Shown: in pieces, positions 2,311-13,345 of the stretch | Layout: each line of letters opens with the position of its first letter | How positions within the stretch are numbered: position 1 is the stretch's first letter | Source: an uncultured virus (IMG/VR IMGVR_UViG_3300006033_000021) | Lineage: Duplodnaviria > Heunggongvirae > Uroviricota > Caudoviricetes | Length of the DNA stretch: 20,000 nucleotides | Virus record (IMG/VR): IMGVR_UViG_3300006033_000021 | Strand: one strand, 5' to 3' | Made by a program: the position numbers and the translations under genes | Notes under the pieces: model-generated | What the model saw: the letters and a program-made list of their open reading frames with translations, nothing else | Told to the model about the DNA's origin: nothing | Databases searched by the model: none

Positions 2311-2316
2311 TATAAT
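2291..2316 (+). promoter_or_regulatory. possible promoter of the Pth2 module
   Basis: Perfect TATAAT 2311-2316 followed by AGAG, similar to the other promoters here. TTGACG at 2291-2296 is only 14 nt away, which is non-canonical. Confidence 0.4.
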
Positions 2317-2334
2317 AGAGCTAGGAGAATAAGA

Positions 2335-2664
2335 ATGCGCAGATATTAGGACCAACACTTCTACGTACTGGTAAGGGATGACCTTCCCATTCCTCAACAA
2401 GCTGTTCAGGCAATTCACGCCGCTCACGAAGCAGCTTTACACTTAGTCGAACCTCCCCCTAAGATTGCATCATTGGTACTATGTTCTGTGCCAGATGAAG
2501 ATGCTTTACTTCGGGCTGAGCATGTCCTTAATATGAAGGGCGTGCGTAGCATTGTCTTTTATGAACCCGATATGGGTAATATCCCTACTGCTCTGGCTAC
2601 AGAGTATGTGACGGGTTCCACTCGTAAGTTGTTTAGTAAATATCCACTATGGGGAAAGGAGTAA
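2335..2664 (+). CDS. Pth2-family (peptidyl-tRNA hydrolase II-like) protein with in-frame TAG at codon 5 (2347-2349)
   Basis: AGGAG 2323-2327, ATG 2335. Translation MRRY*DQHFYVLVRDDLPIPQQAVQAIHAAHEA...SLVLCSVPDEDALL...GVRSIVFYEPDMGNIPTALATE...RKLFSKYPLW matches the Pth2-fold pattern VRxDL..Q..HA / EPD..TALA. 109 codons if read through. Confidence 0.8.
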
Positions 2665-2667
2665 ACC

Positions 2668-2709
2668 ATGTTGTAGGGCACGGTAGAACGCGCGCCTCCC
2701 ATTGGCTAA
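2668..2709 (+). CDS. amber-interrupted leader peptide ML*GTVERAPPIG (putative ribosome-arrest peptide)
   Basis: AGGAG 2657-2661, ATG 2668, TAG 2674-2676, CGC GCG CCT CCC (RAPP) 2689-2700, TAA 2707-2709. Confidence 0.7.
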
Positions 2710-2744
2710 CTAAATCGGTATGTTGCCCTTTTGCCAATGGAGAG
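2696..2744 (+). promoter_or_regulatory. RBS-sequestering hairpin (translational attenuator)
   Basis: CCATTGGC 2699-2706 is complementary to GCCAATGG 2733-2740, extendable by CTC/GAG; it covers the GGAG SD (2739-2742) of ATG 2750. Confidence 0.65.
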
Positions 2745-2749
2745 ATACA

Positions 2750-3118
2750 ATGTTAACTGAATATATCATCGACCGTTTAACCAAGATTCGTCAGCGTATC
2801 AAGGCTTGTGCTTACTATGTGACTAACCAGGAGCATTGCAAGCCTGAAGATTATGATGAGATCATTAAGACAATCAGCCCATATAGCCGTAGTTGTGAAT
2901 ACTATATGACTGCCTTGTTGAATCTACACCATAAGATTCGTGGTCATACTGAAAGTTATCACGACTATAAGCCAGCTAAGGATGGTTCTCATGATGGGCG
3001 ACAAAACTATGTGAGTAGCCTTCAGTATGCGCTCATGAAAGAACTCGACATTACCAAGGAGATGCTCGATATGATCGCTGCAAATGTCGAGGAATATCAA
3101 GCGCAGAAAGTTGCGTAA
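2750..3118 (+). CDS. hypothetical protein downstream of the RAPP leader
   Basis: GGAG SD 7 nt before ATG 2750 (preferred over 2720); 122 aa. Confidence 0.8.
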   Translation: MLTEYIIDRLTKIRQRIKACAYYVTNQEHCKPEDYDEIIKTISPYSRSCEYYMTALLNLHHKIRGHTESYHDYKPAKDGSHDGRQNYVSSLQYALMKELDITKEMLDMIAANVEEYQAQKVA

Positions 3119-3129
3119 TATTGCGCAAT

Positions 3130-3162
3130 GGGGCGGTGGGGGGGATGATTCTCCACCGCCCC
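3130..3162 (+). terminator. GC-rich hairpin closing the Pth2 module
   Basis: GGGGCGGTGGGGG 3130-3142 pairs with TCTCCACCGCCCC 3150-3162; no U-tract. Confidence 0.55.
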
Positions 3163-4243: not shown

Positions 4244-5131
4244 ATGGCATTTACGACAATCACACCGGGGACACTACCCGTCGTCAACGTGAGTGGGGAT
4301 ACATTGCCCGAAGTATGGGAGGCAGCACTAGTTGCTGTATGGGACCATGGGGCGGCTATTCCCACTCAATACGACAAGCCCGGTGATCCACCTAGCAAAG
4401 ATGCTACAGCCATCTTAACTATCCACCATCCTCTACAAGAGCCCCGTATTCACCTCGCATTCCCAGGCGGTATAGCGGATCTAGAGATCTATCGCCAAGA
4501 AGTCGTAGATGGTATTCACGATCATTGGATTGATCCCAAAGCCGGCAAGTGGGAGTATACCTATCACGAGCGATTGTTTGATTACAAGGTTTTGGTAAAG
4601 CAAGATGCTGGGACGGTTTTTGAATGCCGGCCTATAAAGCATATCAATCAGATCCAATACGTAATTGACGCTTTAGTAGAAGCCCCTCATACACGCAGAG
4701 CCCAAGCTATTACTTGGAAACCGTGGGAGGATTGTGGTATTAGCGATCCCGCATGTCTCCAGTCATTATGGTTCCGTATATTTGATGATGAATTGGTAAT
4801 GAATGTTAGAATGAGATCTAATGATCTATTTAAGGCTACATTCATGAATCTTTATGCCTTTATAGATTTGCAAAGATTGGTGGCTGAAAAAGTATCAGAA
4901 AAGCTTGGTAGAGAAATCCGTGTTGGTCAGGTTAATCACCAAGTTGATTCTATGCATATCTACGGGTCTTATTATCAAGAGGTTGAGCGTTTCCTTGACA
5001 CAATGAAGAATAAAACCTTCAGTCAGAGGACTTGGAATGCTTGTGATTACGCTGATGTCTTTGAAGAGGCTAAGGCTGATATCAAAAAGTCTCTAGAAGA
5101 AGAAAAGCGCACAGGCAGAAAAGGAGTCTAG
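4244..5131 (+). CDS. thyA: thymidylate synthase family protein
   Basis: YTYHERL, TRRAQ, catalytic DPACLQ, MRSND, FMN (Asn associated with dUMP preference) and SMHIY motifs. Confidence 0.9.
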   Translation: MAFTTITPGTLPVVNVSGDTLPEVWEAALVAVWDHGAAIPTQYDKPGDPPSKDATAILTIHHPLQEPRIHLAFPGGIADLEIYRQEVVDGIHDHWIDPKAGKWEYTYHERLFDYKVLVKQDAGTVFECRPIKHINQIQYVIDALVEAPHTRRAQAITWKPWEDCGISDPACLQSLWFRIFDDELVMNVRMRSNDLFKATFMNLYAFIDLQRLVAEKVSEKLGREIRVGQVNHQVDSMHIYGSYYQEVERFLDTMKNKTFSQRTWNACDYADVFEEAKADIKKSLEEEKRTGRKGV

Positions 5132-12913: not shown

Positions 12914-12987
12914 GGCCGGGTAGCCCAATTGGTAGAGGCAACAGATTCAAGTCCTGTAAAGTATGGGTTCGAATCCCATCCCGGCTA
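12914..12987 (+). tRNA. tRNA-Leu(CAA), short variable loop
   Basis: GGCCGGG/CCCGGCT plus A73, loop TTCAAGT, T arm ATGGG-TTCGAAT-CCCAT. Confidence 0.85.
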
Positions 12988-13012
12988 TAGTATACGAGAA
13001 ACAGAATACCCT

Positions 13013-13086
13013 GCCTGGGTAGACCAATTGGTAGAGTCAATAGTCTTAGGAACTATGTAGTATGGGTCCGAATCCCATCCCAGGTA
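13013..13086 (+). tRNA. tRNA-Leu(TAG), short variable loop
   Basis: GCCTGGG/CCCAGGT plus A73, ATAGT-CTTAGGA-ACTAT, T loop TCCGAAT (non-canonical). Confidence 0.85.
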
Positions 13087-13331
13087 TTAACACCAACCAC
13101 AAGGAGTACGTAACAGGCAGTGATTATCGGACCATTCAATGGCTTTAGCACCTTAGCTCTGTTGATCACATCTAAGGTCGAGTCAAGCTATAAGAGCTAC
13201 GAAGAGTACCGTTGATATCCAATCATCTCTTAGGAAGAAGCCTCGACGGAGGAAAAGGTCTAGACCGGATGATTGGCTCTACAGCGTGTGGATGCGACAT
13301 CTTATAGCAGCCTGTTGTGGTTGGTGTTAAT
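13086..13331 (+). ncRNA. unassigned ~245-nt structured RNA
   Basis: Perfect 17-bp closing stem (13086-13102/13315-13331) with nested helices; the ORF track shows no ORF here. Confidence 0.7.
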
Positions 13332-13345
13332 TTTGGAGAAGACAG

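Follow-up and report, generated by a model that had tools for sequence, protein, structure and literature searches.

The window analysed here, a 20-kb stretch of DNA from an uncultured tailed virus (IMG/VR record IMGVR_UViG_3300006033_000021), is phage-like, with 44 closely packed plus-strand open reading frames (ORFs) and four tRNA genes. At 2311-3162 on the plus strand lies a module of three coding parts: a gene for a protein with the fold of the peptidyl-tRNA hydrolase PTH2 (the PTH2-like gene, 2335-2664 as a whole), a short leader mini-ORF, and a gene for a 122-aa helical protein (gene2). The PTH2-like gene has an in-frame TAG at codon 5 and the mini-ORF has one at codon 3; we call such a start, its few codons and the early stop a gate. 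Our reading, to which we give a probability of about 75%, is that this is a conserved phage module in which a phage nonsense-suppressor tRNA acts as the key that licenses neighbouring genes, the second of them by way of a ribosome arrest triggered by read-through. Its parts are:

2311-2316, plus strand: TATAAT hexamer, a possible -10 box, directly after the TAG stop of the upstream gene (from the sequence)
2323-2327, plus strand: AGGAG, Shine-Dalgarno (SD) sequence of the PTH2-like gene, 7 nt before the ATG at 2335 (from the sequence)
2335-2349, plus strand: gate ATG CGC AGA TAT TAG (M R R Y stop), with the TAG at 2347-2349 as codon 5
2350-2664, plus strand: main part of the PTH2-fold protein, the 104 aa that follow the TAG, in a frame open to the TAA at 2662-2664
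2655-2661, plus strand: AAAGGAG, SD of the mini-ORF, which falls within the final codons of the PTH2-like gene and 6 nt before the ATG
2668-2709, plus strand: leader mini-ORF, M L stop G T V E R A P P I G stop, with TAG 2674-2676 as codon 3, RAPP at 2689-2700 and TAA at 2707-2709
2696-2744, plus strand: predicted hairpin in which 2696-2706 (from the second Pro codon onward) pairs with 2733-2744 (the gene2 SD), in the minimum-free-energy and centroid folds
2739-2744, plus strand: GGAGAG, SD of gene2 (from the sequence)
2750-3118, plus strand: gene2, from ATG 2750 to TAA 3116-3118, with an alternative ATG at 2720
3130-3162, plus strand: G+C-rich hairpin after gene2, 3130-3139 with 3153-3162, a 10-bp stem and 13-nt loop (from the sequence)

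A preliminary description of this DNA, made from its letters alone, had named the Pth2-like gene, the mini-ORF, the 122-aa gene, the TATAAT box and the repeat at 3130-3162, and we find each of them where it had placed them; both TAG codons are followed by G, as it said. It had also drawn a unit running from the TATAAT box to a strong hairpin. Both ends exist in the sequence, but a promoter scan called no site at TATAAT 2311-2316, and the hairpin at 3130-3162, which has no T tract, was not called as an intrinsic terminator; it is a possible transcript end or stabiliser.

The two TAGs are not assembly slips: a second, independent assembly of the probable source run gave letters identical to the window. 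An independent landfill metagenome run yielded a relative 97-98% identical to the module, in which the leader (2668-2709) is unchanged. Its substitutions fall at third codon positions in six of seven cases in the PTH2-like ORF and four of five in the 122-aa ORF, a pattern indicative of purifying selection on both. The landfill contig ends 8 nt past the first TAG, and that codon is not securely read there. A nucleotide search of the window against GenBank phages gave no match.

Homologs of the PTH2-like gene were gathered as DNA, 12 loci from viral contigs and 57 from metagenome contigs, leaving 62 after removal of exact duplicates, and each locus was read in frame upstream of the match. These loci share descent, and counts over them are not counts of independent events. 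The best metagenome match to the window protein is 59% identical. In 53 of the 62 distinct loci an ATG opens a run of 1-12 codons that ends at an in-frame stop, and a conserved strand, Y-V-x-V-R, comes 3-22 codons further on; the distance from gate to strand is 3-12 codons, with 22 in one locus. All 53 gated genes have the stop within their first 13 codons and nowhere else in the gene, even though they have diverged to 33-59% protein identity. The stop is TAG in 50 and TGA in three, never TAA. Among the viral-contig homologs alone, 11 of 12 have the early stop, and 50 of the 53 gated homologs show an SD-like motif ahead of the leader ATG. The rest of the 62 are three partial matches, three loci with an in-frame TAG and no ATG within 12 codons (L042, L046 and L057), and three ungated copies that are weighed below. 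A later scan added three loci: two M-L-stop genes with tRNAs of anticodon CUA, and one more ungated copy.

The specificity of the pattern was gauged by scanning 510,517 bases of the loci for an SD-ATG, up to 10 codons, a stop, and an open frame of at least 70 codons. With TAG as the stop there were 57 matches, of which 41 were PTH2-like, nine belonged to a second family and seven were other; with the remaining stops there were nine matches for TGA and seven for TAA. Judged from these comparisons, the early-stop pattern is conserved far above chance and appears to be a selected gate, not decay. The preliminary description had held that two early ambers (TAGs) in adjacent ORFs were unlikely to be chance decay or sequencing error, and the 53 of 62 loci and the identical second assembly bear this out.

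The surroundings of the stop also appear to be selected. The next base 3' is G in 40 and A in 13, a purine in all 53 gated loci; the preceding codon is for Thr in 33 and is ACG in 23; the following codon is for Val in 22; and the leader is of two codons in 20. In E. coli a 3' purine after the stop reportedly favours suppression by tRNA (work of Bossi, and of Miller and Albertini), so a G after TAG is not the sign of a leaky stop. Elsewhere in the window TAG is an ordinary terminator, as had been claimed: the 44 ORFs end in TAG (14), TAA (16) or TGA (14), and the sole in-frame TAG inside any of them is that at 2347. A pyrimidine follows nine of the 14 terminal TAGs, and G follows both internal ones (a small sample); most of the 14 have another stop soon after.

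Little room is left for initiation downstream of the gate. There is no ATG, GTG or TTG between the stop and the Arg of the strand in 20 of the 53 loci; in 32 nothing but Val, Leu or Met codons of the strand itself could serve, and in one a start codon lies ahead of the strand. In the window the first core strand starts two codons past the TAG, and the next ATG, GTG or TTG comes only at codon 47. A product starting there, such as the 58-aa fragment of the public gene call (P0001), would be without the first strand, the next helix, and most or all of the second strand. With no usable start between stop and strand, the full-length PTH2-like protein would need a tRNA that reads the stop.

Such tRNAs, called with ARAGORN on the DNA of the loci, lie close by. 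In 27 of the 53 gated loci a suppressor tRNA is found on the same strand 97-1125 nt from the stop, often separated from the enzyme gene by less than 160 nt. Anticodon and stop agree in every case: CUA in 24 TAG loci and UCA in all three TGA loci, with no discordance. Two of the TGA loci (L038 and L064) have near-identical leaders, and the three amount to about two independent lineages. Because the type of early stop matches the anticodon of the linked tRNA, a dedicated tRNA is the probable key. The remaining 26 gated loci, the window included, show no suppressor in the DNA available, and 16 of these are contigs under 3 kb. Where none adjoined, five whole records were searched. In four of them, phage RsoM2USA and the contigs of L002, L007 and L009, a CUA tRNA turned up at a distance of 4.8-13 kb from the gene; the remaining record is a fragment only 8% complete. 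In the closest relatives (L013 and L014, 58-59% identity) the module sits inside arrays of 21-23 tRNA genes in 20-kb loci, with the suppressor 126 nt upstream of the gate. When the suppressors of L013, L014 and L016 are compared with the other tRNAs of the same arrays, none is matched by one particular isoacceptor (identity 0.59-0.72).

Cultured phages tell the same story. By tblastn the family was found in eight GenBank phage records; five of them, each a different phage, were examined (ME3, RsoM2USA, XacN1, Xoo-sp13 and RAS14), and all five have both the early TAG and a CUA tRNA. Acinetobacter phage ME3 has M-T-stop and, about 450 nt upstream, a tRNA annotated 'anticodon CTA'. In Ralstonia phage RsoM2USA an M-L-stop stands in a gap between annotated genes, and the CUA tRNA is about 13 kb away. 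In XacN1, Xoo-sp13 and RAS14 the PTH2 domain is the C-terminal part of a protein of about 280 aa, and the gate, SD-ATG-AAG-(AAG)-TAG or M-K-(K)-stop, stands at the start of the longer, fused gene; the stretch of RAS14 from the TAG to the GTG annotated as its start encodes conserved residues. A tRNA with CTCTAAA at positions 32-38 is present in both Xoo-sp13 and RAS14; this bare anticodon-loop pattern is uninformative when searched alone and informative once intersected with tRNA matches. XacN1 has two CUA tRNAs, and its authors report that they could not tell what these act on (PMC5852040).

GenBank annotation misses these gates. ORF364 of XacN1 is started four codons past the M-K-stop (L070, about 940-966), the RAS14 gene is given a GTG start that falls within conserved sequence (L072, about 930-1021), and the RsoM2USA copy (L073, 1292-1737) has no annotation at all. 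A genome-wide scan of ME3 for gated genes returned crude patterns at background level and missed the known PTH2-like gene, because that gene has a weak SD and a GTG in the first strand.

The reach of the family is wider than the loci read as DNA. A profile search of 1.84 billion representative proteins found 3,936 relatives at E ≤ 0.001 and 1,710 at E ≤ 1e-10; the weak end of the 3,936 may include ordinary PTH2. Many of the top matches have their N-terminus right at the first strand, which is what truncation in gene calling would produce. Of 22 library proteins with longer N-termini that we inspected, 13 have Gln (12) or Trp (1) at the gate position. This suggests either that Gln and Trp are the inserted residues or that the genes were called under other codes, though these could also be real CAG or TGG codons in the DNA. 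A single-protein scan of bacterial genomes gave three weak partial matches; the family comes mostly from phage and metagenome DNA.

The PTH2-like gene is not the only gated one. In another branch of loci it is followed by a gene for a protein of about 135 aa, with the motif R-W-G-F-Y-P-C ... R-K-L-P-H-N-R-V, gated by ATG TTG TAG in L033, L034, L035, L045 and L047 and by M-T-stop in L030, where the terminal TAG of the PTH2-like gene doubles as the gate of its neighbour. This family matches no Pfam or PHROG family and is not present in the window. Its members include:

L033, 928-1332: ~135-aa family gene
L047, 10405-10809: ~135-aa family gene
L030, 10334-10753: ~135-aa family gene
L012, 4095-4781: ~135-aa family gene

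ORFs of 190-360 codons also stand behind an SD-ATG, 2-7 codons and a TAG at L052 3629, L009 2882 and L010 2495. None matches a Pfam family, and the leader in L052, M-L-P-K-P-N-T-stop, is like those of PTH2-like genes. They could belong to the regulon of the tRNA as well, or be background.

The second gate of the window, that of the leader mini-ORF, recurs as well. Members of the small, unnamed gene2 family come immediately after the PTH2-like gene in 21 loci (17 distinct ones), and in 14 of the 17 a mini-ORF stands between the two genes. It consists of a start, 1-8 codons, TAG, 0-4 codons and the motif R-(A/G/S/D)-P-P, which reads RGPP in ten, RSPP in two, RDPP in one and RAPP in the window. 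In the other three (L005, L020 and L027) gene2 either overlaps or directly adjoins the stop of the PTH2-like gene, itself gated. The Arg codon of the motif may be CGC, CGT, CGG, CGA or AGG and the Pro codons may be any of the four, synonymous variation that points to constraint on the leader peptide. Fujiwara et al. report RAPP and RGPP as the most robust arrest motifs, refractory to EF-P, with RSPP and RDPP permissive for arrest, and they find these tetrapeptides to be among the most depleted in bacterial proteomes (PMC12992588). The spectrum of motifs in the leaders is exactly the one reported there as arrest-competent. The comparison supports the RAPP mini-ORF as a conserved, predicted arrest-type leader for gene2, and with it the earlier claim of a three-part, translation-related module. 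The check proposed in the preliminary description, conservation of the early stops and the leader while synonymous sites diverge, came out with the stops in 53 of 62 loci, the RxPP leader in 14 of 17 and synonymous divergence at the Arg and Pro codons.

Only six residues precede the RAPP core in the window leader, and this part of the peptide varies among relatives. By dot-bracket reading of the relatives' folds, the SD or start of gene2 is paired in about ten, and in about five (L002, L013, L014, L016 and L029) it is paired with the Pro codons themselves. Rfam contains no known RNA family matching the leader or the hairpin.

A tRNA-like element lies between the arrest leader and gene2 in L006 (2850-2925; tRNA-Cys GCA by ARAGORN). 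A similar stretch occurs in L003 at about 4390-4470, where ARAGORN makes no call.

How closely does the first gene's product resemble PTH2? Pfam PTH2 (PF01981) matches the window protein at E 0.036 and 14.7 bits, below the cut-off of 23. Among 20 aligned relatives the same profile matches 19 at E ≤ 0.1, the strongest at 1.8e-6, and the XacN1 homolog scores 25.3 bits. The AlphaFold2 model of the window protein (pLDDT 92.7) matches the solved PTH2 structures 1q7s, 2zv3, 3erj, 1wn2, 1rlk and 1xty in Foldseek with E 8e-6 to 1e-4 and TM 0.72-0.80. The assignment to the Pth2 family therefore stands for the fold and not for the sequence, which is remote: the window protein is a remote branch of PTH2 and not a canonical member. 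Profile alignment with the solved enzymes shows the motifs V-R-x-D-L, Q..HA and D...T-A-L/V-A common to both, and the Asp of an E-P-D motif (D74) is invariant and aligns with the Asp of D-A-G in solved PTH2. The catalytic residues of archaeal Pth2 are said, from work on S. solfataricus, to be Lys, Asp and Thr, and we take the Lys of the Gly-Lys position of PTH2 to be catalytic. In the phage proteins Gln-Gln replaces this Gly-Lys, which makes hydrolase activity uncertain; it is plausible from the alignment, and not assured.

The gene2 product is modelled as a helical bundle (pLDDT 87.7). It has no match in Pfam, PHROG or the PDB, no match stands out in the fold search (best Z 5.3, among generic helical matches), and the Atlas comparison gave nothing above 0.76; the relatives recovered by a profile search, 15 in all, are unnamed too. 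A HEPN RNase was considered because of low-scoring Foldseek rows (E 1.8-2.8) and a motif like R-x5-H. We dropped the idea: the first Arg is Cys in two relatives, the motif is missing in a subgroup, and no fold match stands out.

From the anatomy, its conservation and the stop-anticodon match, all directly observed, we infer a working scheme of read-through by the phage tRNA, arrest, and a hairpin switch. At the PTH2-like gene the ribosome would start at a good ribosome-binding site (RBS) and meet the stop after 1-12 codons; the phage suppressor tRNA would decode that stop and give full-length PTH2-like protein. Without suppression, a ribosome on the leader would end at UAG 2674 after two codons, short of the 2696-2706 arm, and the gene2 SD would stay paired with the Pro codons. 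With suppression it would read into R-A-P-P and stall, and a ribosome with the Pro codons in its P and A sites would cover 2696-2706, open the hairpin and free the RBS of gene2. Both genes would then be on only when the suppressor tRNA is present, charged, and outcompeting release factor 1 (RF1).

Several observations weigh against this scheme. Three of the 62 loci (L011, L059 and L066) start normally, with no early stop; two of these, L059 and L066, adjoin a CUA tRNA all the same, and the ungated copy from the later scan (L123) adjoins a tRNA-like call with a 2-nt anticodon. In XacN1, Xoo-sp13, L030 and L122 an ATG lies 0-4 codons past the stop and could start the gene unsuppressed. The replacement of Gly-Lys by Gln-Gln, given above, bears on the enzyme. 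The predicted pairing of the gene2 SD with the mini-ORF coding sequence, which the preliminary description had noted, holds in the minimum-free-energy and centroid folds, but the fold as a whole is no more stable than shuffled sequence (z -1.42; equalled by 23 of 200 shuffles). At the stall the ribosome would carry a chain of only about 9-16 residues. Work on these motifs reports that the RAPP core alone is insufficient for arrest and needs the neighbouring N-terminal region (PMC12992588). Finally, the window's 20 kb, scanned with ARAGORN and Rfam for the CUA tRNA that the preliminary description had proposed looking for, has no suppressor tRNA. Its tRNAs by ARAGORN are Ser-CGA, two short ones with Leu anticodons (CAA and TAG) and Arg-TCT, of which Rfam re-finds three and adds none. 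Because the gene is only 2.3 kb from the left edge, a distant upstream tRNA would fall outside the window.

Some further tRNA-related features deserve mention in their own right. The two short tRNAs of the window (12914-12987 and 13012-13087) are similar to each other, 74-76 nt long, and have no long variable arm, unlike bacterial tRNA-Leu; the anticodon CAA is one base change from the amber anticodon. Directly after them comes a 250-nt non-coding stretch (13085-13335) with a 16-bp terminal stem. It folds at -87.4 kcal/mol (z -5.29; none of 200 shuffles as good) and has no Rfam match. In L013 a promoter-like pair, TTGACT...TAGAAT, lies between tRNA and gene. ARAGORN also calls tRNA-like genes with anticodons of 4 nt (ccgg, agtc) or 2 nt (ca, tc, ct) near the module, which may have unusual anticodon loops or be frameshift-suppressor-like tRNAs:

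L005, 4895-4974: odd-anticodon tRNA-like gene
L017, 8624: odd-anticodon tRNA-like gene
L020, 2004: odd-anticodon tRNA-like gene
L022, 10662: odd-anticodon tRNA-like gene
L061, 626: odd-anticodon tRNA-like gene
L123, 1822-1895: odd-anticodon tRNA-like gene

Other explanations were considered for the same data. One, a sharper version of our own reading, is a feedback rheostat, in which the PTH2-like enzyme would act on the aminoacyl or peptidyl form of the suppressor, so that a protein made only by suppression caps suppression, much as RF2 limits itself via the in-frame UGA of prfB. The closeness of enzyme and tRNA genes on one strand and the co-variation of stop and anticodon would suit it, and with TAG a real terminator in 14 of the 44 window ORFs unlimited suppression would harm the phage. 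The ungated copies beside a CUA tRNA in L059 and L066 speak against such feedback, however, and a positive role for the enzyme is equally compatible with the arrangement; we think the rheostat unlikely.

The preliminary description had favoured a sensor of general termination stress: with host RF1 inhibited or depleted, the ambers would be read through with no dedicated tRNA, and the products would relieve the stress. The window without a suppressor tRNA, the peptidyl-tRNA hydrolase fold of the first product, and an early stop in a translation-factor gene that recalls prfB all fit that proposal. RF1 stress cannot explain why the stop follows the anticodon in 27 of 27 loci, the three TGA loci included. 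Nor does it sit well with CUA tRNAs in four of five further whole records and in all five cultured carriers examined, or with a purine after the stop in 53 of 53, the context that in E. coli favours suppressor tRNAs. We regard stress as an improbable main trigger. The suppressor tRNA, which the same description had listed last among possible triggers, is the one to which the CUA/TAG and UCA/TGA pairings point, and on our best reading RF1 stress is not needed.

Minigenes like bar of phage lambda offer a third view: short units would shed peptidyl-tRNA and starve the host of tRNA, and the PTH2-like protein would be the phage's remedy. In lambda the bar minigenes consist of an SD, AUG, one or two codons and a stop, and have a functional link to Pth. 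The same form occurs here, with two-codon leaders in 20 of 53 loci, a codon before the stop biased strongly to Thr ACG, and a linked enzyme with a peptidyl-tRNA-recycling fold. Unlike in free-standing bar minigenes, however, a conserved protein continues in frame after the stop. The view leaves unexplained how the enzyme is made without a start codon, why stop and anticodon match, and why RxPP follows the stop; it has a slim chance of being the main account, and shedding of peptidyl-tRNA would be at most a side effect.

A change of code over the whole genome, with TAG read as Gln (code 15) and the two TAGs as plain sense codons, is very improbable. Dropping TAG as a stop does lengthen some ORFs, and the Gln or Trp at the gate in 13 of 22 inspected library relatives would agree with it. 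But 14 of 44 ORFs end in TAG and only one has it in frame, so the window is not in code 15, and a stop confined to the first 13 codons in 53 of 53 genes is unlike scattered sense codons. Reading the window and the loci under code 15 or code 4 raised coding density trivially, did not discriminate, and was rejected on stop usage. That the gene is a pseudogene, population variant or assembly error, as a stop at codon 5 and a public call of a 58-aa fragment (P0001) might suggest, is refuted by the stop kept in 53 loci diverged to 33-59% identity, by purifying selection in the near relative and by identical letters in the second assembly.

The tRNA-keyed module has partial precedents. As in recoded phages, a phage suppressor tRNA would make in-frame TAG or TGA readable. 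Borges et al. describe recoded phages with suppressor tRNAs and 'code change modules', propose such reading of stops as a post-transcriptional switch, and report an operon of tRNA, synthetase and release factor (bioRxiv 10.1101/2021.08.26.457843). Unlike those phages, the window keeps TAG as a normal terminator, and the in-frame stops are only in the first codons of one to three small genes near the tRNA. The partners also differ, a PTH2-fold protein and an arrest leader here; the words 'hydrolase' and 'N-terminal' do not occur in that preprint.

The leader is like ApdA, ApdP and SecM-like arrest peptides in being a small ORF with R-(A/G)-P-P upstream of the regulated gene, and stalling is predicted to open an SD-sequestering hairpin as in the ApdA/ApdP class. 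The known RAPP and RGPP peptides respond to the export or insertion of proteins, are relieved by a pulling force, and are longer on the N-terminal side. The module belongs to a phage, its leader would respond to read-through of a UAG that stands 0-4 codons ahead of the motif, and the stalled chain would have only about 9-16 residues. The word 'phage' does not occur in PMC12992588.

Other precedents concern the stop and the enzyme. The gene for RF2, prfB, has an early in-frame UGA that is bypassed by +1 frameshifting and senses its own product. Like prfB, the PTH2-like gene belongs to the sphere of termination and tRNA recycling, has an early in-frame stop, and would have its output depend on stop decoding; unlike in prfB, the same frame continues past the stop and the decoder is a separate tRNA gene. 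In the pyrrolysine system tRNA-Pyl, with anticodon CUA, decodes in-frame UAG in methylamine methyltransferase genes. The likeness is a CUA tRNA near its few target genes, with UAG otherwise a stop. The differences are that no pylS- or pylBCD-like genes were seen, that a TGA/UCA version exists, and that the UAG is in a non-conserved N-terminal leader, not at a catalytic residue. With the PTH2 hydrolases (human Bit1, 1q7s; archaeal 2zv3, 3erj and 1xty) the protein shares the alpha/beta fold, and it differs in its score below the Pfam cut-off and in Gln-Gln versus Gly-Lys. Judged by titles and abstracts, a full-text literature search on phage suppressor tRNAs, peptidyl-tRNA hydrolase or PTH2, and in-frame stops turned up no description of the module.

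The neighbourhood in the window can be described briefly. The module is flanked by a gene for an HD_4 (RelA/SpoT-type HD) domain protein at 172-789 and by an ORF at 4244-5131 matching PHROG families named thymidylate synthase. The HD protein shows no similarity to the N-terminal region fused to the XacN1 PTH2 domain (E 0.27), in which Pfam finds no HD domain at E ≤ 0.01. The ORFs 1369-1815, 1849-2310 and 2335-2664 share one frame, with TAG codons and short open spacers between them, and would form a single 431-codon frame (1369-2664) if TAG were read through. The arrangement could be accidental, the odds being about 1 in 20, or it could yield fused proteins whenever the suppressor is at work.

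Large phages of standard code commonly carry suppressor tRNAs, and what these act on has been an open question, as the XacN1 paper states outright (PMC5852040). The module names a target that can be tested at the bench: a PTH2-fold gene, seen in about 50 uncultured loci and five cultured phages. It also exposes systematic mis-annotation, as gene callers truncate or miss gated genes (P0001, RsoM2USA and RAS14). The tRNA, the gate context ACG-UAG-G and the leader are compact natural parts, like those that synthetic biologists build by hand, and an RxPP motif behind a stop codon would by nature report read-through, an input of a kind new to arrest peptides.

Why a hydrolase should be tied to a suppressor is a matter for guesswork. 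The enzyme may clear peptidyl-tRNA arising from read-through, or cap the suppressor in a genome where TAG still terminates; our guess is that it hydrolyses peptidyl- or N-blocked aminoacyl-tRNA from read-through, or trims the suppressor's charged pool. Taken further, and tentatively, since we think it a possibility with the odds against it, the suppressor tRNA and the PTH2-type enzyme that it licenses would together set the level of read-through, as a prfB-like homeostat, coupled to an arrest peptide that reports stop decoding. If true, this natural, portable circuit would equip standard-code phages with a small 'second code' regulon and account for the retention of suppressor tRNAs by many jumbo phages, and the leader would be the first arrest peptide whose input is the decoding of a stop codon.

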